Source: Myxococcota bacterium (lineage in GTDB: Bacteria > Myxococcota_A > UBA9042 > PHBI01 > JAWLBL01). Taken from it: a stretch of 64,000 nucleotides of DNA. The notes under the pieces were generated by a model. That model was not told the origin of the DNA. It was given only the letters and a program-made list of their open reading frames with translations, and did no database searches. Position 1 is the first letter of the stretch. Each line of letters begins with the position of its first letter. This document shows, in pieces, positions 1-10,536 of this stretch. The position numbers were made by a program, and so were the translations under genes. The stretch covers positions 1-64,000 of the forward strand of contig JAWLBL010000001.1 of assembly GCA_041687695.1 (NCBI GenBank). Direction: 5' to 3'.

Positions 1-1
1 A

Positions 2-214
2 ACGAACGCGGGACGGGACACCCGAGAGGGGCTCATCCCAGCCCAACTACCGGGAAACGACCGCGAGACAAACCCGGGACGGGGAGCCGGGACAGGACAG
101 GGGGGGATCACCGTCCAGACGCCAGACGGTTCGATCACCAGTGCGAACGCCGCAGTGCTCACCCTGACCGGGACCATCACGAGCTGCTCCAGCAAAGTGA
201 AGGCGGTGGACTGA
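2..214 (+). CDS. 3' end of a phage gene, probably baseplate spike/gp45-like (partial)
   Basis: Frame open from the window edge to ...GTITSCSSKVKAVD*. Its TGA overlaps the next ATG, and it lies directly before a gp46-like gene. Confidence 0.5.
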   Translation, partial: TNAGRDTREGLIPAQLPGNDRETNPGRGAGTGQGGITVQTPDGSITSANAAVLTLTGTITSCSSKVKAVD

Positions 215-1650
215 TGCCGACGACCATCCACATCAGCCCGACCGGCAACGACACGACCGGCGACGGCTCCGAGCTGAACCCTTACGCCACGTTCGCCAAG
301 GCGCTCTCTGTCGCAGTAGCTGGGGCGACTGCTGCCTACGGCTCGGGCGACACCATCCAAGCCGCTGCTGGCGTCTACAGCGAAGGGCGCGTGGGGAACG
401 TGGCCAAGCAGGGGATCACGCTTCGGGGCGACCCTGCGGGGGGCACGATCATCGACGCCAGCGGGTCGTTGAACGACGGCTTGAGCTGGTACCACTTCTG
501 GGACTTGTACGACCTGACCGTCTTCGGCGCACCCAGCAACGGCTTCGAGGCCCAAAGCTCCGGCCGAACCGCGCGGCTCACGCGCTGCGTCTCGCACTCG
601 AACGGGCAGGTCGGCATCTGGACGGCGAGCGCCCCCAACGTCGAGGTCTACCACTGCACCGTCTTCGACAACGGGGAGCGGGGTATCGACGGCGGGACGG
701 GCACCGGGTTCCGGGTCAGCCACGCCCTCGTCTACGACAACGGCCGGGACGGCATCTACACGACTGCCGCCGACTCCGTGGTCGAGTTCAGCACTGTGGC
801 CTTCAACAGCGTCGGCGTGACGGGCGGGACCTACGCCATCTACGCGGGCACGGTGCGGTCGTGCATCGCCTTCGGGAACGAGATCGCCTACGGCATCCGG
901 GCCGGGACCTACGACCACTGCCTCGCCTACGGGTCGCACACGACGAGCAACTACTACTCGACGCCGGACGCCGACTCGCTGGAAGACGATCCACTCTTCG
1001 TTGACGCCGACGCGCGGGACTTCCACTTGACGGCTTCGAGCCCGGCCGTCTGGACGGGTGCGGCTTCCACCCTGAACGTCACGACCGACCTTGAGGGCAC
1101 CCCGTTGGCCCCTGTGCCGAGCATGGGCGTCTACGAGTACGTTTCGCCCGATCGCGTCGTCGCCAACCCGCCCTCGTTCGCGCTGACCGTCACCTTGGAT
1201 GGCGAACGGGTCGGGGTCGATCCCTTCTCCGAAGCCCTCTCGCCGCTCGACTTCGCCGTCCTCTCGTCTCTGCTCACCGATAGGAGGGCGGAACCTGAAG
1301 ACACCCTCCCGGTGGACGACGGGGACAGGCGCGGATGGTGGGGTGACGGGTTCGGCACCGACGGCGCCGAGGGTGCCCCAGAGCCCTTCGGCTCCCGCCT
1401 CTGGTTGCTCCATCGGACGACCGCCACCCAGGCGACGGCGACCTTGGCCAGGCTCTACGCCGAAGAGGCGCTGGGCTGGCTCGTTACCGATGGGCTGGTC
1501 GAATCCGTCAGCGTCACCTCGGAGGTCGGAGCCGGAGCCATCATCACCTTGGAGGTATCGTATAAAGCAGCCCGCTCGGCCGAAGAGCCGCGCGTCATGC
1601 GGCTTCTAGTCGACGATCAGTCGAGCACGGGCTCGGGAGTGCACTGGTGA
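214..1650 (+). CDS. Right-handed parallel beta-helix domain fused to a C-terminal Mu gp46-like baseplate domain
   Basis: N-terminus ISPTGNDTTGDGS..NPYAT..KA and repeated DNG..GI coils. C-terminus SLLTDRRA..D..RRGWWGD...GSRLWLL...A..YAEEAL.WL is gp46-like. Confidence 0.8.
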   Translation: MPTTIHISPTGNDTTGDGSELNPYATFAKALSVAVAGATAAYGSGDTIQAAAGVYSEGRVGNVAKQGITLRGDPAGGTIIDASGSLNDGLSWYHFWDLYDLTVFGAPSNGFEAQSSGRTARLTRCVSHSNGQVGIWTASAPNVEVYHCTVFDNGERGIDGGTGTGFRVSHALVYDNGRDGIYTTAADSVVEFSTVAFNSVGVTGGTYAIYAGTVRSCIAFGNEIAYGIRAGTYDHCLAYGSHTTSNYYSTPDADSLEDDPLFVDADARDFHLTASSPAVWTGAASTLNVTTDLEGTPLAPVPSMGVYEYVSPDRVVANPPSFALTVTLDGERVGVDPFSEALSPLDFAVLSSLLTDRRAEPEDTLPVDDGDRRGWWGDGFGTDGAEGAPEPFGSRLWLLHRTTATQATATLARLYAEEALGWLVTDGLVESVSVTSEVGAGAIITLEVSYKAARSAEEPRVMRLLVDDQSSTGSGVHW

Positions 1651-1653
1651 CGC

Positions 1654-2739
1654 ATGGCTGACACAGGTTTCACACGACCAACCCTGAGCGAGCTGGTCAC
1701 CAGGACTTCGCAGGATCTCGAAAACCGCGTCGACGGCTTGGACGCGCGCTTCAAAGGCACCTGGTCGTGGGCTCTGGCTCGGGTGGTGGCCGCAGGCCAC
1801 TACCTACAGCACCAGCACCTGTCCTGGATCGCCAAGCAGGTACTTCCTGACACCGCTGAAGCCGCCTCCCTCGACCGGCACGCGGCCATCTGGGGGATCA
1901 CCCGCCGAGGGTCCGGCAGGGCCACGGGCAACGTCACCGTCAACGGAACCAACGGCAGCGAGATCCCCGTCGCCGCGCTTCTACAACGTGCCGATGGCAC
2001 CGAGTACCGCGTCACCGCCGACGGGGCCGGAACCATCGGCATGGGCGGAACCCTCACGGTCGAAGTCGAAGCGGTCGAGCCGGGCGAAGCTGGCAACGCC
2101 GACGAGGGCGTCGTCCTCACATTCGTGAGCCCGATCGCGGGCGTCACGTCGGCAACGACGGTGCAGGCGGGGGGCATCGTCGACGGCGTGGACGAAGAGA
2201 CCGACGACGCCTTGAGAGAGCGCATCCTGGCCCGGATCTCCGCGCCTCCGCAGGGTGGCTCAGAAGCCGACTACATCGCGTGGACTCGGGAGATCGCCGG
2301 TGTCGATGAGGTCTGGGTCGCGCCTGCGGCCGAAGGCGCCGGCACCGTCCGGGTCCGCTTCTCGATGAAGGTCGAGACGGACGACGACGACCTCGACCGC
2401 ATCCCCGGGTCGGCCAAGGTCGATGAAGTTCAGGCGCACCTGGATGAGGTCGCCCCGGTGACCTGCACGGTCTACGTGGCCGCGCCGACTGCGCAGGAGA
2501 TCGACTTTGAGGTTCAGGTCTTCCCGAACACCGCCGAGGTGCAGGCAGCGGTGACCGCCGAACTGAAGGCCCTCCTTCGTCGTGAAGGCGGACCCGGCAA
2601 GACCATCAAGTCGTCGGTCATCCGAGCGGCGATCAGCGCAGCCGAAGGCGAGCAGTACCACACGCTCGTCACCCCAGCCGGTGACATCACCTCGACGGCT
2701 TCTCAGCTCCCCGTCATGGGATCGGTGACGTTCTCCTGA
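1654..2739 (+). CDS. Baseplate J / Mu gp47 family protein
   Basis: FTRPTL.EL, Q.LPDTA, A.G.V...GT.G, G.D.E.D..LR.R, P.QGG...DY..W motifs. Confidence 0.92.
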   Translation: MADTGFTRPTLSELVTRTSQDLENRVDGLDARFKGTWSWALARVVAAGHYLQHQHLSWIAKQVLPDTAEAASLDRHAAIWGITRRGSGRATGNVTVNGTNGSEIPVAALLQRADGTEYRVTADGAGTIGMGGTLTVEVEAVEPGEAGNADEGVVLTFVSPIAGVTSATTVQAGGIVDGVDEETDDALRERILARISAPPQGGSEADYIAWTREIAGVDEVWVAPAAEGAGTVRVRFSMKVETDDDDLDRIPGSAKVDEVQAHLDEVAPVTCTVYVAAPTAQEIDFEVQVFPNTAEVQAAVTAELKALLRREGGPGKTIKSSVIRAAISAAEGEQYHTLVTPAGDITSTASQLPVMGSVTFS

Positions 2740-3275
2740 TGCTGACCCGCCTGACCGATAGCGAGTACCGCGACCAGCTCGCCCAGCTCCTTCCGAAGGG
2801 GAAGCTCTGGGAGCGCGTCCTTGACGGGCGCTTAGGGCAGGTTCTGCACGCCCTGGCCGACGAGTTCGCCCGGGTTCACGACCGGGCACAGGATGCGCTC
2901 ACAGAAGCCGACCCCCGCACCGCAGACGAGATGCTCGAAGGCTGGGAGCGTGTGGCCGGGCTCGACGGGGACGGGACCGACGACGAGCGCCGCGCCGTCC
3001 TGCACGCCCACCTGGTCGCCCGAGGGGGCCAGTCCTCTACCTATTACATAGGGCTCGCTGCGAACCTCGGGGTCGAGGTCACCATCGAGACCGTGACCCC
3101 GTTCCGGGTCGATGCGGCGACCGTCGAGACGCCCCTCTATGAAGATCCGTGGGCCTTCGTGTGGTGGGTCACCGGGCCGGCTACGACCAGCGCAACCGTT
3201 CAGGCGCAGGTCGAAGCCCTGGTCGAGCTGCACAAGCCGGCGCACACCATCGTCCACTTCGCCTGGACAGCCTGA
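2739..3275 (+). CDS. Mu gp48-like (YmfQ/DUF2313) baseplate protein
   Basis: Y..QL.QLLP.G..W, EADPRT..EML..WER..GL, GGQS..YY..LA, KPAHT motifs. Start overlaps the upstream stop. Confidence 0.9.
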   Translation: MLTRLTDSEYRDQLAQLLPKGKLWERVLDGRLGQVLHALADEFARVHDRAQDALTEADPRTADEMLEGWERVAGLDGDGTDDERRAVLHAHLVARGGQSSTYYIGLAANLGVEVTIETVTPFRVDAATVETPLYEDPWAFVWWVTGPATTSATVQAQVEALVELHKPAHTIVHFAWTA

Positions 3276-3287
3276 GGAGGCGACCCC

Positions 3288-4508
3288 ATGCAACGAATCC
3301 AGCACCCGTCCACTGTCGCCGTCCTCCCTGACATCACAGAGACCGGCGACTACGGCTTCTACACGCCAGGCGATCCCGAGACGGACACGCCTCCGACGAC
3401 GGTCACGGCGGCGGCCCTCAATAGGATCCAAGAGGAGTTGGTCAGTATCGTCGTCGGCGCGGGCTTGAGCCTCGATGCCGAGGACAACGGACAGATCTGG
3501 TCGGTCCTCTCACACATCCTCGGCATCGAGTCCGGCACCTCGTCCGTGACCGCATCGAACACGAACGACCGCGCCGTCCTCGTCTCGGACGCTTCGACTG
3601 CTGATGGCGACCACAGCGCGGCGGTGGCTTCGAGCACGGTGACCGCCCAGGGTGACTACTCGTTCGTGGCCGCAAGCGGGAACTTCGGGCACGCCGACGG
3701 CACCCGATCCGTCCTGCTGGCGAGCAACGGGGGCACGGTCGCCGCAACGAACGGTGCGGCCCTCGCCACCGTCGGGGCCGACGTGCAAGGCACCTCGTGC
3801 GCCGTCGTCGCCGCCAACGACTGCGGGACGGCATCGGGGACGAGCAACAACCTCGTCGTCGCCAGCCAGTACACGATCAACAACGTCAGCAACTCCATCG
3901 CGGGCGGCTACGCGGGCTCCGGCCCTGCGGCCACGGGCAACGTCACCTGGCGGATCGAGAGCCAGGGAGGCAACGCAGCCTTCTCGGGCACGATGACGGC
4001 GAACGGCGTGATCGACTCGGGCGCCGACTACGCCGAAGCGTTCCCGAACCTCGAGCCCGGGGCGATCCCCGTCGGGCGCCTGGTCGCGCTGGATGGTGAA
4101 GCCGTCCGCCTTGCTGGCGAAGGCGACGATGTGCTGGGCGTCGTGTCCCCCGCACCTGCGGTCCTCGGCGACGCGCCCCAGCACTGGCACGGGCGGTACC
4201 TGCGCGACGAGTTCGGCGGGTACGTCCTCGACGAGCAGGGGCAGAAGGTCGTGAACCCCGACTACGACCCCGCTCGTCCCTACGTCCCGCGTCAGCAGCG
4301 CCCGACCGAATGGACGGTGGTGGGTCTGCTCGGAAAGCTGTTCATCGCCGTCGATCACACCGTGGCGGCTGGCGAGTACGTCCGCCCCGGCCCCGAAGGC
4401 GGGCTGGGCACCGTGTCCGAGGAGGCGACCAGGGTGAGGGCGATGAAGGTCACGTCACCCTACGATGCCGCGCGCGGGTACGCGGTGGCGCGGTGCCTCG
4501 TCATCTAG
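3288..4508 (+). CDS. Tail fibre/spike with a C-terminal peptidase G2-like intramolecular chaperone
   Basis: N-terminal fibre motif (LN.IQEEL..IV..AGL), Ser/Ala-rich repeats, ADYAE cleavage motif, Y.PR..R..EW..VGLLG. GAGGAGG RBS. Confidence 0.85.
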   Translation: MQRIQHPSTVAVLPDITETGDYGFYTPGDPETDTPPTTVTAAALNRIQEELVSIVVGAGLSLDAEDNGQIWSVLSHILGIESGTSSVTASNTNDRAVLVSDASTADGDHSAAVASSTVTAQGDYSFVAASGNFGHADGTRSVLLASNGGTVAATNGAALATVGADVQGTSCAVVAANDCGTASGTSNNLVVASQYTINNVSNSIAGGYAGSGPAATGNVTWRIESQGGNAAFSGTMTANGVIDSGADYAEAFPNLEPGAIPVGRLVALDGEAVRLAGEGDDVLGVVSPAPAVLGDAPQHWHGRYLRDEFGGYVLDEQGQKVVNPDYDPARPYVPRQQRPTEWTVVGLLGKLFIAVDHTVAAGEYVRPGPEGGLGTVSEEATRVRAMKVTSPYDAARGYAVARCLVI

Positions 4509-4948
4509 CGAGCCTGGATCTTCAGTCCCCATCCATCGTTGCACCGAGCCTCGGTGAAGCTGAACTCGATCAGGGTGCCGGGCGCGAACGGCCCGGGAAG
4601 CGAGACCGTGCTGTCGATGACGTTCCCCGTGTCCTCCTTGATGGCGAACGCTTCGAGAAGCATGGCTTCGGGGTGCACCTCAAGGATCTCGTAGGTCATG
4701 ATGCAGCCCCTCTTCCCGACCAGGGGGCGCATGCCGCGCAGCTTCACATCGAGCTTTGAGGGCACCCGATCGAGCGAACCTGATGGAGCCTCTGGCGAAC
4801 TGGCCGGCTCCTTGTCGGGGTCGATGCACTGGAGCTTGAGGTTCTCCCACTGAGCCCGCTTCCCCTCGGGGCAGTGGTCGCCGAACACCACGTACGCGGT
4901 TGCTCCGGCGAGGATGCACAGCACTACAAGTAGCCCGCCGATGTTCAT
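4505..4948 (-). CDS. Hypothetical protein with N-terminal membrane anchor (possible moron)
   Basis: Hydrophobic N-terminus and GGGGAG RBS; convergent with the tail fibre gene. Confidence 0.65.
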   Translation of the reverse strand: MNIGGLLVVLCILAGATAYVVFGDHCPEGKRAQWENLKLQCIDPDKEPASSPEAPSGSLDRVPSKLDVKLRGMRPLVGKRGCIMTYEILEVHPEAMLLEAFAIKEDTGNVIDSTVSLPGPFAPGTLIEFSFTEARCNDGWGLKIQAR

Positions 4949-5016
4949 CGGCTCCCCCTATGACGTGTCCCGGTCACGGGGAAGCGACCACGGATGCGGC
5001 CCGAGGTCAACCCGAG

Positions 5017-5649
5017 CTACTTCGCCTTGCTCTTCGCGGTCTCGATCGCCTTCTTGAGCCCGGCATCGAGGTTCGTGGTGAACCGCTCGCGCGTGACCCT
5101 CAGGACGGTCTCCTTCAAGGGCCAGCGCTTGGGCACCTTGACCCTCTTCCTCAACCAATAGAGTAGCTCCAGGCGCTGGTTGTCTCCCTTCCCCTTCATC
5201 CTCCAGATCCCCTTCGCCTTCTTCTTCCCCTTGGGTCCGTCGAGGACGACGACGCCCTTACGCTTCAAGAAGGCGCCGGGCCAGCGGCTCTTCGAGGTCT
5301 TGGCGTCGAGGGTCACGCGGGGCTTACCGGAGCCGACGGCAGGGACCGCAACGTCCTTGCCCTTGGACTTCTTCGGCCCGCCCTTCGCCTGCCGGGCCAT
5401 GTATTCCTCTAGGCTGCCCACCTTGGCGGTCAGGGTCTTCTTCGTGGCGCGCTCGATCCTGATCCCCTTCGCGCTCCAGTTGCTCCTGATCGTGAAGTGC
5501 TGGGGCAACTCCTCGCGCAAGGTCGCCTGCGCGTCCTTCGCCGTCGCCGTGAGGGCGCTGGCGATCCCGAACGGCACCTGTCGGCTGAACTCGCCGAGCT
5601 GCTTCTCCAGCGCTTTCCAATCCCCTGAGACCTTGATCACGTTGGCCAC
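5017..5649 (-). CDS. Basic phage protein, virion morphogenesis (gpZ-like) type
   Basis: GTG start after GGGAGG. KQ..F..A.ALT.TA.D..., IERATK..L.A.V, Q..GG.K pattern typical of this phage family. Confidence 0.65.
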   Translation of the reverse strand: MANVIKVSGDWKALEKQLGEFSRQVPFGIASALTATAKDAQATLREELPQHFTIRSNWSAKGIRIERATKKTLTAKVGSLEEYMARQAKGGPKKSKGKDVAVPAVGSGKPRVTLDAKTSKSRWPGAFLKRKGVVVLDGPKGKKKAKGIWRMKGKGDNQRLELLYWLRKRVKVPKRWPLKETVLRVTRERFTTNLDAGLKKAIETAKSKAK

Positions 5650-5657
5650 CCTCCCCC

Positions 5658-5712
5658 GATGGAACACGTGATTCTTTAGTAGAAGAAGCTCTAAGGAATC
5701 ACGTGTTCCATC
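5658..5712. repeat. Perfect 17-bp inverted repeat (22 bp with one mismatch) around an 11-nt spacer
   Basis: GATGGAACACGTGATTC (5658-5674) and GAATCACGTGTTCCATC (5696-5712). Confidence 0.95.
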
Positions 5713-5797
5713 CTGTGCCCTGACCCCTAAAGGGTACCTCCCCAGGCGGCCCGGTCGCGCCCGTAGGCTGGCGTGCCCCAAGGGTACTCTTTGGGTC

Positions 5798-6577
5798 ATG
5801 CATGACCTCGCCGACCGCCTCGCACGCCTCGCTGATGATCTAGCTTGGATCGCCGATGATCTACGTAGAGGAAGCTCCTCCAAGGCTCCTCTAGCGGTCG
5901 CTGTGCGCCAGGGCGAACGGCTCAAGTCCTTCGCACGCCCGGCCGGGCAGGCGATCGACGAGATCGTTGTGCACGAGTCGGTGAGCGCGTCCGTCGAGTC
6001 GACCCTCACCACGCTGCGCTCGAAGGGCTACGGCGTTCACCTGATCGTCTCGCCGACGGGTGAGGTGACCCAGCACGCGCCCCTCGTCGACGAGTGCGCC
6101 CACGCAGGCGTCGCCGACACGCACCCACCCAGCACGCACAACGATCGCAGCGTCGCCGTCGAGCTGGTCAGCCCCTACTACGAGCCCGAGCAGCTCGAAC
6201 CGGGGCAAGTGGTCATCGACGCCAGGTGGGCTCACCGAGGGCGCTACCTCATGCCCAGCCTGCCGGCCCTGGAAGCGGTCTGGCGGGCCATCCAGTGGGT
6301 TCGGGAGCAGGTGCCGACCATCCCCCTCGCGTTCCCCTCGGTGGACGCTCAGGGCCGGTACCGCTGGGGACGTGACCCTCGTCACAACGTCGGCGGTGGG
6401 GTCAGGGCGCACGCAGCGTGGAACCACAGCGATGGGCACGTCCCGACCTTCTACATCCTGCTCCGCTCCTTGGGCTTTGAAGCCGACGACGCCTACGCGG
6501 AGACGATCCGCGTCGCGTCCTCCGTCCCGGGTTCACGGCTCACGCCGGTGCCCTCTCCGCAGAAGGGGGCCGCATGA
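5798..6577 (+). CDS. N-acetylmuramoyl-L-alanine amidase (endolysin)
   Basis: IVVHES, YGVHLIV...GEV.Q, AHAG, N.RS..VE and late H...D motifs of Amidase_2. Confidence 0.85.
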   Translation: MHDLADRLARLADDLAWIADDLRRGSSSKAPLAVAVRQGERLKSFARPAGQAIDEIVVHESVSASVESTLTTLRSKGYGVHLIVSPTGEVTQHAPLVDECAHAGVADTHPPSTHNDRSVAVELVSPYYEPEQLEPGQVVIDARWAHRGRYLMPSLPALEAVWRAIQWVREQVPTIPLAFPSVDAQGRYRWGRDPRHNVGGGVRAHAAWNHSDGHVPTFYILLRSLGFEADDAYAETIRVASSVPGSRLTPVPSPQKGAA

Positions 6578-6882
6578 GCGACCAGAACTTCCTGACCCAA
6601 CAGCTCCAGCGCCTCAACGACAAACTCGACGAGGTCTTCAGATCCCTCGCTGACATCGGCGCACGCCTGGCCCGGCTCGAAGAAGGGCGTGACCAAGCGA
6701 AGGCGGTTGAAGCTCGGGTTACCGCGCTCGAAGCCCGAGTCACCAGCGTTGAAGGCGAGGTCAAGGAAGGCAAGGCGCGCGACCGGCTGATGATGGCCGG
6801 GCTGGTCGCCCTCGGCTCCCTGCTCGGCATCGGAGGTTCGGAAGCCGTCAAGGCGATCGCCAAGGTGCTGGGGGCCGGCTGA
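6574..6882 (+). CDS. Coiled-coil protein with C-terminal TM segment (holin-like)
   Basis: ATGA overlap with the amidase gene; RVTALE heptads followed by a hydrophobic tail. Confidence 0.65.
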   Translation: MSDQNFLTQQLQRLNDKLDEVFRSLADIGARLARLEEGRDQAKAVEARVTALEARVTSVEGEVKEGKARDRLMMAGLVALGSLLGIGGSEAVKAIAKVLGAG

Positions 6883-7229
6883 TGAAGCCCTGGATCGTTG
6901 CGCTCGCCCTCGGGCTGTCCGCGTGCTCTGTCGACCTACAGCGCCGGCCCGATCCCCTGTTGCCGATCGACCTGGGCACCCACCCATGCGTGGTCACCAT
7001 CACGACCGGGCATACGACCGTCACCCTCGACCTCGGTGAGGTCGGCGCGGTCGCCGTGCGCGAGGCAGCGGGCCGGGCCGTGGACGCTATCCAAGGCGCA
7101 GGGGTTGCGGTGCCTCCCGTCCTTGTTCAGCTCGCCGCTGGGCTGGCTCAGGCGGGCGTCGACGAAGGGCTATGCCGGGCGTTCGCGTACGTGGCTGACC
7201 GGATCGATGGAGTGCGGGTTGATCGGTGA
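6882..7229 (+). CDS. Phage lipoprotein (possible lysis accessory)
   Basis: MKPWIVALALGLSAC lipobox; coupled to the upstream gene. Confidence 0.7.
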   Translation: MKPWIVALALGLSACSVDLQRRPDPLLPIDLGTHPCVVTITTGHTTVTLDLGEVGAVAVREAAGRAVDAIQGAGVAVPPVLVQLAAGLAQAGVDEGLCRAFAYVADRIDGVRVDR

Positions 7230-7782
7230 CCTGGCTCTACGTCCCGCCCCCTTCAACGTGCTCTCCCTGTGCAGCGGCTACGACGGACTCGGACTCGGAA
7301 TCAAGCTCGCCGTCCCCACCGCCCGTACCGTCGCTCACGTGGAGAGGGAAGCCTATGCAGCCGCGTGCCTGGTCAGCCGCATGGCGGAAGGGTGGCTGGA
7401 TCAGGCGCCTGTCTGGGACGACGTGCTCACCTTCGACGGCGCAGCGTGGCGTGGAGCAGTGGATTGCATCACTGCGGGGTTCCCCTGCCAACCCTGGAGC
7501 CGGGCAGGAGACCGCCTCGGCGCCGACGACGAGCGGTGGATCTGGCCGGCGATCGCCCGCATCTGTGACGAGGCGCTACCGCCGAGCGGTGCACCGGAAC
7601 CCGGGTACGTCTTCTTGGAGAACGTTGCTGGGCTCGCAGACGGCGGCGGGCTCGACCTCGTCCTCAGCGACCTTGCGCGCCTCGGGTTCGATGCGGCGTG
7701 GGATCTGTTTCGATCGGAAGACGTTGGGGCCACGCACGCCAGGGCACGGATCTTCATATTGGGAAGGCGCGGTGGTAGTTGA
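7207..7782 (+). CDS. C5 DNA methyltransferase, N-terminal polypeptide (motifs I-VIII)
   Basis: LSLCSGYDG (I), AGFPCQPWS (IV), FLENV (VI), H.RARIF (VIII). Start is ATG 7207 or TTG 7219 after GGAG. Confidence 0.85.
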   Translation: MECGLIGDLALRPAPFNVLSLCSGYDGLGLGIKLAVPTARTVAHVEREAYAAACLVSRMAEGWLDQAPVWDDVLTFDGAAWRGAVDCITAGFPCQPWSRAGDRLGADDERWIWPAIARICDEALPPSGAPEPGYVFLENVAGLADGGGLDLVLSDLARLGFDAAWDLFRSEDVGATHARARIFILGRRGGS

Positions 7783-8170
7783 TCACGGAGCCCGACCTCG
7801 ATTGGGGTGGCGTCGACGACATCTGGGCGGGCGAGGTCTGGCTCTGCAACGGCGACCTGCTCGACGTGGTGACCCCTTCGGGCGACGTGGAGCCCTTCCC
7901 GATCGAGTGGGCGACGCTGCTCAACGGCACGGGGCGTTGGCCGACGCCGACCTGCAACGACGCGCGGAATGCGGGCGGCCCGGCTCAGCGACGGCGACGG
8001 ACCTGGGCGGTCAACGCAGCCATCGGCGGGCCATTGGCGCCGGAGTTCGTCGAGTGGATGATGGGGACCCCACAAGGTTGGACCGGCTCAGGATGCTCGG
8101 AAACGGAGTGGACCCGCTGGCTGCGGGCTTCGCGTTCGCAACTCTCTCGGCTCGCATGGATGGGCGCTGA
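7226..8170 (+). CDS. Overlapping +1-frame ORF ending in the C5-MTase motif X-like segment
   Basis: GTG start overlaps the lipoprotein stop (GTGA). Ends RLDRLRMLGNGVDPLAA. Confidence 0.65.
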   Translation: MTWLYVPPPSTCSPCAAATTDSDSESSSPSPPPVPSLTWRGKPMQPRAWSAAWRKGGWIRRLSGTTCSPSTAQRGVEQWIASLRGSPANPGAGQETASAPTTSGGSGRRSPASVTRRYRRAVHRNPGTSSWRTLLGSQTAAGSTSSSATLRASGSMRRGICFDRKTLGPRTPGHGSSYWEGAVVVDHGARPRLGWRRRHLGGRGLALQRRPARRGDPFGRRGALPDRVGDAAQRHGALADADLQRRAECGRPGSATATDLGGQRSHRRAIGAGVRRVDDGDPTRLDRLRMLGNGVDPLAAGFAFATLSARMDGR

Positions 8171-8225
8171 GGCCGACCTGAGCGTATCACCCGTCACCAA
8201 ACAGAGTTCACACCGGGGAAGCTAG
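7779..8225 (+). CDS. Third-frame ORF carrying the C5-MTase motif IX-like segment
   Basis: TTG start overlaps the TGA of 7207-7782. Contains WPTP and LAPEFVEWMMGTPQGWT. Confidence 0.65.
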   Translation: MITEPDLDWGGVDDIWAGEVWLCNGDLLDVVTPSGDVEPFPIEWATLLNGTGRWPTPTCNDARNAGGPAQRRRRTWAVNAAIGGPLAPEFVEWMMGTPQGWTGSGCSETEWTRWLRASRSQLSRLAWMGAEADLSVSPVTKQSSHRGS

Positions 8226-8237
8226 GCGCGCACCTGG

Positions 8238-9524
8238 CTAGCTCCTACTCTCTGGAACCTCATCCCTCGGCTCAAGTGGTTCTTCCGTTTCGTCGTCACT
8301 TGGAACTGCTTCGGCCGAGTACTCGGCCAGGATTGCGGGGGGAGGGAGGTTCAACGGCGGGAGGGCTCGCTCAAGACCGCCAACACGGTCTTGCCATTCG
8401 CGTATCGCCTGGGCTGAGGCTAACGGAATGGAGAGACCTGAAGTTGCTCCCGTCAGGGCTTTGATTCCCGGGAAAGCCAATGAAGCGCTCAAGGCTTCTA
8501 TCGGACGGGTGATCTCGTCCATCGACCGTATGGCTTCCTGGACTCGACGGGCACCAGGAGACTCCAAGTACTGTGAGACCGCCGCCATCTTGGCGGCTAG
8601 CCCAGAGTCGAGTCCGGCTGAGAACATCCTCACCTTACGAGCGTTGGCTTCCCACCGCGCTTGCGCCCTAGACATACGTTCGGCACGTTCTAGCTGTCTC
8701 GCCACCAAGCCCAACTGAACCGAACCTTGATCGTGCAGTCTCTGTGGAGCCTCCGGCACGCGAGCCGCTTGGCTGGCTGGCTCCAACACCCTTCGAGCCA
8801 ATGCGAGTACATCGTCGAGAGTCTGAACGCGGTCGCGTCTCTCCAGCCGCGTCGTCTCCAGCACAAACTGGTTCCATGGTCCGTCAGGAGCCCTAGGGAT
8901 GTTTGGGGCCAGCTTCACACCCCGACACCATGCTACCACGCGACCCAACCCGAAGATGTCGGTCCGAACATCGGCGTCATGAGCATCGTCCCAGCACTCC
9001 GGCGCTGCGAACTGGTCGGTTCCGTACATCCCCCCTACAACGGTTAGCGCTGCTGTAGTCTGACCTGGTGCCTTCCTCGCGAGACCGAAGTCTGAAACGA
9101 CCCAGCGTCCCCGGCCGTCTTCTTCGATCCGAAGAACGTTTCCCGGCGTCACGTCTCGGTGCGCGCCGTGGACCGAGTGGAGGGCCTCTAGCGCGCTCAC
9201 GACGTGCTCTACCACCTCCAACAGTTCCGAGTCCGTGAGTCCTTGCCCGACATCATGAAGCGAATAGGCAGCCCACGGCATCGTGTACCACAGAGGCTGG
9301 TCGCCGCTTTCCTCATCGACATCTAGAACGGGGACGATGTTTGGATGCGACAGAGATCTCAGCACTTCGATCTCGCGTCGGAACCGTGCCTTCGTCTGGG
9401 TGCCCAGCTTCGACTTCTTGAACGCCACGGTTCGGCCAGAAGCCTTGTGAAGCCCTCGATAGATCCGTGCCTGGCCTCCGACAACGTACTCGCGGGACAG
9501 TCGGTAGTCCTTCCTCGTCCCCAC
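8238..9524 (-). CDS. Hanks-type Ser/Thr protein kinase
   Basis: GGQARIY, VAFK, FRREIE, HRDVTPGN, DFGLA, APE, DIFGLG motifs. GAGGAG RBS. Confidence 0.92.
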   Translation of the reverse strand: MGTRKDYRLSREYVVGGQARIYRGLHKASGRTVAFKKSKLGTQTKARFRREIEVLRSLSHPNIVPVLDVDEESGDQPLWYTMPWAAYSLHDVGQGLTDSELLEVVEHVVSALEALHSVHGAHRDVTPGNVLRIEEDGRGRWVVSDFGLARKAPGQTTAALTVVGGMYGTDQFAAPECWDDAHDADVRTDIFGLGRVVAWCRGVKLAPNIPRAPDGPWNQFVLETTRLERRDRVQTLDDVLALARRVLEPASQAARVPEAPQRLHDQGSVQLGLVARQLERAERMSRAQARWEANARKVRMFSAGLDSGLAAKMAAVSQYLESPGARRVQEAIRSMDEITRPIEALSASLAFPGIKALTGATSGLSIPLASAQAIREWQDRVGGLERALPPLNLPPPAILAEYSAEAVPSDDETEEPLEPRDEVPESRS

Positions 9525-9545: not shown

Positions 9546-10442
9546 TCAGCTACCGACAGGGGAGCCGGTGTTCGCGATGGTTATCGTGGAGGCTTTCCCG
9601 AGCATGTAGGACACGAAGCCTGAGCACAGCACGAGCATGAACTGGGCGTCGTGAAGGTCGGGGTCCAGCTCGCCCTTGCTCGTATGTCGGATTCCCGTGT
9701 CCGAAGTCCATCCGTAGAGCTGGCTCATGCCGCCCAGGAAAGCACCGTGGGCCGGGAACCTGTCCTTGAGGCGCTTGATAGCGTCGCCCATCGTCACGGA
9801 CGGGTCGCCGAGCACGATCCGGCAGACGCCTTCGACCGCGCTGATGGACTCCTTGATCGAATTCGTGAAGTCCGGGTTGTCCCGATCGCTCAGGAGCGCC
9901 AGGGCGTTCCGCAGATGCTTCCGAACCTCGGCGAACTGGTCGGTAGCGGCGAGGGCGCCCTCCACCGCTTCAACGTCGATCGGTGAGGTGATCGTCGTGA
10001 TCTCGCCATCGATGAAGCGGTAGCCGGCCAGGTTAGCTTCAAGGACCTCGTTGACCTTCGCCTCGAACCGTTCGCCTATCTCACGGCGAACTTGGGGTTT
10101 GAGGTCGGACTCGTCCATGAAAGCAGCCCTACAGACCTCAAGGAAGTCATAGACCTCGTTCCACGGCGCCGTTTTCAAGATCCAGGCGCTGATCGCCTTC
10201 GTTGCTTCCTCGGTCCAGGTTGGAAACCCGTTCATGGGCAGACGTGCGATCTCACACCACCACGCCTCGGTGATCCGCCTCCCCAGCTCATGCCCCTTGA
10301 GCATAGGTCGTTGAGGATAGAAGGCTTCCCGGACAATGAAGTTCCACAGATCAGTGCGAAGCCCGTGGTCCGCCTGCTTGATCTGCACGTCTAGAACCGG
10401 CGTCAAGCCTTGCCGCTCTGAGAACGTCCCCTTTAACGCCAT
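9546..10442 (-). CDS. AbiJ N-terminal-domain-like protein with HEPN-like C-terminus
   Basis: FSER.G, LR..LWN, WNEVYDFLE, YRFI.G.I, NSIKESISAVE, LYGWTSD.GIRH pattern. Confidence 0.75.
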   Translation of the reverse strand: MALKGTFSERQGLTPVLDVQIKQADHGLRTDLWNFIVREAFYPQRPMLKGHELGRRITEAWWCEIARLPMNGFPTWTEEATKAISAWILKTAPWNEVYDFLEVCRAAFMDESDLKPQVRREIGERFEAKVNEVLEANLAGYRFIDGEITTITSPIDVEAVEGALAATDQFAEVRKHLRNALALLSDRDNPDFTNSIKESISAVEGVCRIVLGDPSVTMGDAIKRLKDRFPAHGAFLGGMSQLYGWTSDTGIRHTSKGELDPDLHDAQFMLVLCSGFVSYMLGKASTITIANTGSPVGS

Positions 10443-10536
10443 CGCCGCACCCCTCTCCACCTGTTCAGGTGGATCTGAGCACAACCAGGCATCCCATCGC
10501 AACACCCCTGACCGCTTCGGCTCGGTCGCTCCGATG

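Follow-up and report, generated by a model that had tools for sequence, protein, structure and literature searches.

Phage C5 DNA methyltransferases encoded in overlapping reading frames probably include enzymes made of three polypeptides: judged from their sequences, the members of a class of 15 unique loci appear to encode an alpha chain with motifs I-VIII, a whole beta chain with motif IX and a gamma chain that carries motif X and has a start of its own. A relative of these genes resides in the window, by which we mean the entire stretch of 64,000 nucleotides analyzed here (positions 1 to 64,000 of contig JAWLBL010000001.1 from a Myxococcota bacterium), and has motif blocks I-VIII, IX and X all intact, one in each of three frames (ORF list and profiles). 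For this copy we lean, on balance, towards an M.EcoHK31I-type two-frame phage gene that acquired one extra base and has recently been damaged in a defective prophage. The three-polypeptide class among the relatives is a result worth testing and, with good confidence, better supported than a function of the window copy.

M.EcoHK31I from E. coli HK31 (YGGCCR; motifs I-VIII and X on one chain, IX on the other) (PMC2836561, PMC3404938) and M.AquI (CYCGRG; I-VIII on one chain, IX-X on the other) (PMC3404938) are presented, in the sections of these papers that deal with them, as exceptions to the single-chain C5-MTases. Work on permuted and artificially split C5-MTases, as covered in parts of PMC5944983 and PMC3404938, indicates that breaks in the variable region are compatible with the fold and that fragments complement each other; these constructs consist of one or two chains, unlike the three-piece window gene. 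The HNH insertions treated in the relevant part of PMC11855218 have no bearing on it. No three-polypeptide C5 methyltransferase was found in the literature covered, most subscription journals and REBASE lying outside its scope.

The window methylase and its prophage setting

Frame A (Table 1) matches positions 1-162 of the 324 in PF00145 (E 3.7e-25, Pfam search), with motif I at 7261, GFPCQ at 7477, LENV at 7615 and motif VIII at 7732; catalytic PC and ENV are present together with motifs I-VIII, as in a C5 DNA methyltransferase of this family. It stops five residues past the end of the I-VIII profile and likely starts with TTG 7219, which is preceded by GGAG 6 nt upstream, ATG 7207 being the alternative. 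Motifs IX and X were labeled with profiles built here from homologues, and by these the order VIII<IX<X is kept in 22 of 22 single-chain relatives. The opening of frame B resembles homologous beta chains, which start MxWLYVP, and its LGNGV is found at 8096, about 20 residues short of the ORF end. Frame C contains EWMMG at 8052, and homologous beta chains likewise end with an EWxMG motif. The sequence-only reading of this DNA had placed motifs I-VIII in 7207-7782, motif X in the +1-frame ORF 7226-8170 and motif IX in the third-frame ORF 7779-8225, and all three placements hold. Its suggestion to align the three frames to methylase HMMs worked for frame A; frames B and C are not recognized by Pfam, and Pfam and PDB searches miss these short pieces.

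Table 1. Features of the window methylase locus and examples of separate motif X genes in related loci
Feature	Position	Strand	Content	Basis
Mu-like tail genes	1..4508	+	gp46 fusion, baseplate J, gp48, fibre; left cut inside gp45 at repeated contig end	
Lysis-like cassette	5798..7229	+	amidase (PF01510), coiled-coil membrane protein, lipoprotein-like ORF; upstream of methylase	
Frame A	7219..7782	+	catalytic piece, C5-MTase motifs I-VIII	PF00145 1-162, phrog_363
Frame B	7226..8170	+	+1 frame; chimera of beta N-terminal part (7226-7777) and former alpha linker with motif X (7781-8170)	
Junction	7776..7782	+	interval that must contain the extra base	paralog alignment, single-base scan
Frame C	7779..8225	+	+2 frame; beta C-terminal part with NGD module, WPTPT repeat and motif IX	phrog_1008 261-298, alignment
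Candidate internal start in frame B	8042..8170	+	GGAG, 8 nt, GTG 8054, giving a 38-residue motif X peptide	
Gamma ORFs	L386:3335-3652, L388:3371-3631, L119:3677-3943		examples of a separate motif X gene	

Two four-base overlaps link neighboring ORFs, GTGA (7226-7229) joining the stop of the lipoprotein-like ORF to the start of frame B and TTGA (7779-7782) the stop of frame A to the TTG start of frame C. In the PHROGs collection, phrog_1008 is matched in two parts, by the first half of frame B (positions 33-134) and by the whole of frame C (261-298), and so is phrog_32758, by the end of frame A (5-42) and the end of frame B (66-138). Two families each split across two frames are the signature of a single frameshift. 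Frame C matched 1805 representatives at E<=0.001, and a word-index search with it among proteins of 81-259 residues gave no match. Its AlphaFold model is of low confidence (mean pLDDT 50). The WPTPT repeat is preceded by a small, beta-rich NGD module at residues 5-45 (7790-7910), and the alignment places the start of frame C within the first strand of this module. The NGD module is shared by a few beta chains (P0133, P0135, P0136, P0140, P0186).

The methylase is the last gene of a Mu-like prophage segment made up of tail genes, the amidase, two small ORFs and the methylase itself; the holin and lipoprotein labels of cassette ORFs are putative and were given from sequence and position only. 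The prophage is truncated within gp45, and the only match to the gp45 family and the only Mu-like sheath in the assembly belong to a separate tail operon on contig C9. No restriction nuclease gene was recognized beside the window methylase. Among 40 genomes of host relatives, DNA matches were short and at chance level only; a catalytic-domain homologue at E<=1e-25 occurs in 5 of 400 genomes of the phylum, the beta profile matched none of 17 genomes of the order, and a search for sister prophages with the amidase found none.

Several further features of the segment deserve mention. The ORF at 214-1650 fuses a beta-helix (pectin-lyase-like) domain to a Mu gp46 baseplate wedge domain, and a related beta-helix ORF is located at C19:130991-131815. 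The tail fibre (3288-4508) carries a C-terminal Peptidase_G2 self-cleaving chaperone domain. A lysine-rich ORF without Pfam match (5017-5670, minus strand) sits inside the tail-lysis region, and a 37%-identical homologue occupies the same position in the C9 tail operon. Facing the methylase, a Ser/Thr kinase gene (8238-9524, minus strand) and a gene with an AbiJ_NTD4 domain (9546-10505, minus strand) are lower in GC and are possibly defence genes at the prophage edge. Positions 1-99 are a contig end common to four other contig ends; contig C62 (G000) carries ORFs that we take to resemble IS21 istA/istB.

One extra base and the same-genome paralog

Deletion of any one base within 7776-7782 reopens both frames in a single-base scan, and no homopolymer in this interval is longer than 2. 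A paralog at C1:495619-496092 on the minus strand, a 5'-truncated copy at the opposite end of the same contig that is also cut by a repeat, spans window positions 7680-8154 with 414 of 476 bases identical (87%). It is two-frame, both frames being continuous through the junction, and the fragment thus keeps the alpha continuity of the M.EcoHK31I type (motifs I-VIII and X on one chain), whereas frame A in the window stops at 7782. The EcoHK31I-like dual-coded origin with all motifs kept, as proposed in the sequence-only reading, stands. Downstream of the paralog fragment, an ORF with Myb-like helix-turn-helix repeats is encoded (L059:18322-19056, minus strand).

Window and paralog differ before the junction by 7 changes that are silent in frame A and 2 that are not, and after the junction by 16 that are silent in frame C and 9 that are not. 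Over motif X, 4 changes are silent and 3 not in frame B, as against 1 and 5 in frame C. Because the changes are mainly silent in frame A, in frame C and in the X part of frame B, all three coding parts were under selection, the timing of which relative to the shift is undatable from this pair. In the beta frame, most of the differences flanking the junction are silent or conservative, so that no remodelling after the shift is needed. We considered such remodelling on account of clustered junction substitutions and rejected it, as equal clusters occur elsewhere and the pattern fits selection on beta before the shift.

Gene layouts among related loci

With profiles for motifs I-VIII, IX and X, we classified 477 loci including the window, leaving out own-genome and chance-hit loci (L048-L059, L409-L415, L496-L498). 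Eighteen have no catalytic domain in the stretch examined, and the remaining 459 collapse to 435 unique loci, of which 83 have a layout that is not assignable (truncated or too distant) and 352 have all three motif blocks resolved. The latter comprise 284 two-frame loci, 21 single-chain genes, 13 with I-IX and X on separate chains, 9 with I-VIII separated from IX-X and 25 three-ORF loci, counts that are not frequencies because three-ORF clades were targeted in later searches; before this enrichment, multi-stop three-ORF loci made up 4 of the 208 resolved loci of the first set. Among the best 120 catalytic-domain homologues listed, a motif X-like segment is on the same chain in 107 and motif IX in 1. 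The family beta start, where frame B opens, is conserved in 144 of 188 two-frame loci, and the +1 frame is open over motifs I-VIII in 162 of 224 loci versus 2 of 11 single-chain genes. On a quick tree built from 130 catalytic domains, the window falls into none of the three-ORF groups; its nearest rows are two-frame, with identities of about 57-61%.

Like the window gene, M.EcoHK31I encodes its motif IX chain in an overlapping alternative frame, and its main frame holds I-VIII together with X, the arrangement that underlies the window gene, the paralog and the 284 related loci. It differs from the window and from the 15 natural three-ORF loci in that these have motif X off the I-VIII chain. 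Its target-recognition domain is placed in alpha in the parts of PMC2836561 and PMC3404938 concerned, whereas the variable repeat region of the window family, which we take for this domain, would belong to beta. M.AquI shares with the window a natural split after motif VIII but has IX and X together on its second chain, whereas the window has them in different frames (IX in +2, X in +1). The nine loci of M.AquI-like layout (L158, L260, L267, L370, L400, L401, L403, L172, L244) have an alpha that stops after VIII, with a tail of 5-11 residues in 7 of 9, and a +1-frame chain that carries IX and X together.

The probable three-polypeptide class comprises L071, L119, L306, L307, L313; L238, L249, L384-L390; and L404. 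In 15 of 15 loci alpha ends 4-9 residues past motif VIII, the old linker holds 3-28 stops, beta is uninterrupted between its start and motif IX, and motif VIII is intact, as are PC and ENV; motif X follows downstream in the alpha frame as a separate gamma ORF. In 9 of 15 loci the gamma ORF is preceded by an ATG whose anti-SD duplex reaches <= -7.5 kcal/mol, versus 10 of 196 two-frame loci (7 of 66 among two-frame controls below 56% GC), and at -4.5 kcal/mol the numbers are 13 of 15 and 29 of 196, a contrast that Fisher values overstate because the class loci are related. The strongest ribosome-binding sites are those of L386-L389 and L404, and L238 has no such ATG. Gamma ORFs begin alike, with MAD or MGN, and have in common motif X and a PPGP segment, which occurs in 11 of 11 aligned natural gamma chains; the filler between varies. 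L071 and L119 differ at six codons within 72 bases of motif X, and each of these differences is silent in gamma but changes beta; other pairs show the same tendency less cleanly. These features point to translation of gamma. Frameshifting from beta into motif X is conceivable as an alternative for the class but leaves the upstream PPGP segment and the ribosome-binding sites unexplained. Mapped onto the tree, the three-ORF label cannot be explained with fewer than 3 changes, and well-supported branches force 2 of these; two-frame relatives stand between the groups. The state likely arose several times, with reversals possible.

The combination of IX in +2 with X in +1 that marks the window was met again in just 5 loci, all from one clade (L421-L465) with a run of G11-G15 after motif VIII, about 45 bases past it. 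Run length sets the frame joining in this clade (two-frame in 14, minus-one in 10 and plus-one in 5 of 29 loci), and the run is either a phase-variable slippage switch or assembly noise. The search for homologs of the same frame layout, put forward in the sequence-only reading, thus returned these five; no relative among the 435 unique loci has a fixed junction like that of the window. The same reading had named homologs that are all two-frame, together with an inactive copy here, as speaking against its proposal; 284 of the 352 resolved loci are two-frame and 25 are three-ORF.

Damaged copy or working enzyme

In the parent state, alpha, with motifs I-VIII, a filler linker and motif X, would have been read from one frame, and beta, composed of an N-terminal part, a variable recognition region and motif IX, from the +1 frame. 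An extra base just past motif VIII would stop alpha there; frame B would then run from the first part of beta into the end of alpha, and frame C, the remainder of beta, would need a new start. The change would be recent, with frame C made in too small an amount, or assembling too poorly, for selection to keep it. The truncated prophage and the absence of any sign of selection after the shift make a damaged copy more likely than a working three-chain enzyme. The coupled starts on which the sequence-only reading relied are present, but TTGA carries little weight as functional evidence, since any TGA that arises after a +1 shift is overlapped by an NTG codon of beta; when +1 shifts were simulated in 240 relatives, a coupled NTGA restart upstream of motif IX appeared in 137 of them and, above 62% GC, in 58 of 89.

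It is possible, though we hold this more tentatively, that the window gene is a newly born working three-chain enzyme, in which frame C would be made by restart on the overlapping TTG, motif X would come from frame B (from 7226 or GTG 8054) and the pieces would assemble. All motifs are intact, and the cut lies at the natural split site: of 274 insertion points simulated in the linker of the paralog, only 18 left an alpha tail of <=11 residues, and the five residues in the window fit the 4-9 of the class, whose 15 loci demonstrate alpha ending after VIII and X on another ORF. Since frame B opens at the conserved family beta start, motif X would likely be translated in the window. GTG 8054 is preceded by an SD-like site, noticed after the fact, that scores -6.1 kcal/mol and that the paralog lacks (-1.7 there); -6.0 is reached at the equivalent site by 2 of 86 two-frame loci. 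The pertinent part of PMC3404938 documents complementation between fragments of C5-MTases, and the prophage genes from 214 to 7229 show no further lesion. On the other hand, beta is cut into frames B and C, unlike the whole beta in 15 of 15 class loci, the released linker in frame B contains 0 stops compared with 3-28, the 38-residue peptide lacks the PPGP segment, and neither sister loci nor a relative with this fixed junction were found among the 435 unique loci. The start coupling is expected by geometry, the weak TTG start of frame C falls inside the first strand of its module and is at least as structured as the average of the locus, and the prophage is truncated. For M.EcoHK31I, the Introduction of PMC2836561 states that N-terminal deletions of beta of at least 42 residues abolish activity in vitro, whereas its Results describe the first 42 as dispensable. 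The three-polypeptide enzyme of the sequence-only reading accordingly finds its counterpart in other loci with a different frame layout rather than in this copy. The wider proposition, that the splitting of phage C5 methyltransferases into three polypeptides, all read from a single overlapping gene of 1-1.5 kb, happened repeatedly and that the window copy works and was caught at birth, strikes us as rather doubtful as a whole.

An assembly error, with the organism carrying an ordinary two-frame gene, is improbable. One base separates the two states, and no reads confirm the junction: in the one public read run, 5% of words are shared, its contigs match 6500-6714 at >=99%, and none of the pieces listed crosses the junction; no RNA data set containing this sequence was listed. 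However, the 97 bases shared by contig ends suggest a short-read graph assembly, which together with a site free of runs longer than 2 makes such an error unlikely, and the neighboring genes are unbroken. Programmed recoding, in which ribosomes would shift by +1 where frame A ends and so rejoin alpha, or phase variation by a slippage switch, is very improbable. Although a poly-G run at the corresponding site yields all three phases among the 29 related loci, the window has neither a homopolymer nor a recognizable slippery site, the paralog has none either, and even after a shift from A to B, frame C would require a start of its own.

The damage we favor for the window copy offers a cautionary lesson, namely that geometry alone predicts a coupled start after a frameshift. 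The three-polypeptide enzymes of the class, with catalytic alpha, recognition beta with motif IX and small gamma with the motif X helix, would go beyond the one- and two-chain enzymes, to which the C5-MTase literature covered is confined. In single-chain C5-MTases the motif X helix is part of the cofactor-binding domain; a three-chain form, if true, would mean that a small protein of its own can provide this helix. Such a form would also explain phage methylase genes that look like pseudogenes and provide natural cut points for split-methyltransferase engineering. The overlap itself would supply the new starts, because Trp codons of beta give ATG or GTG in the alpha frame and because a TGA after a +1 shift overlaps an NTG of beta, and overlapping genes may thus survive nonsense and frameshift changes by means of ready-made restarts.
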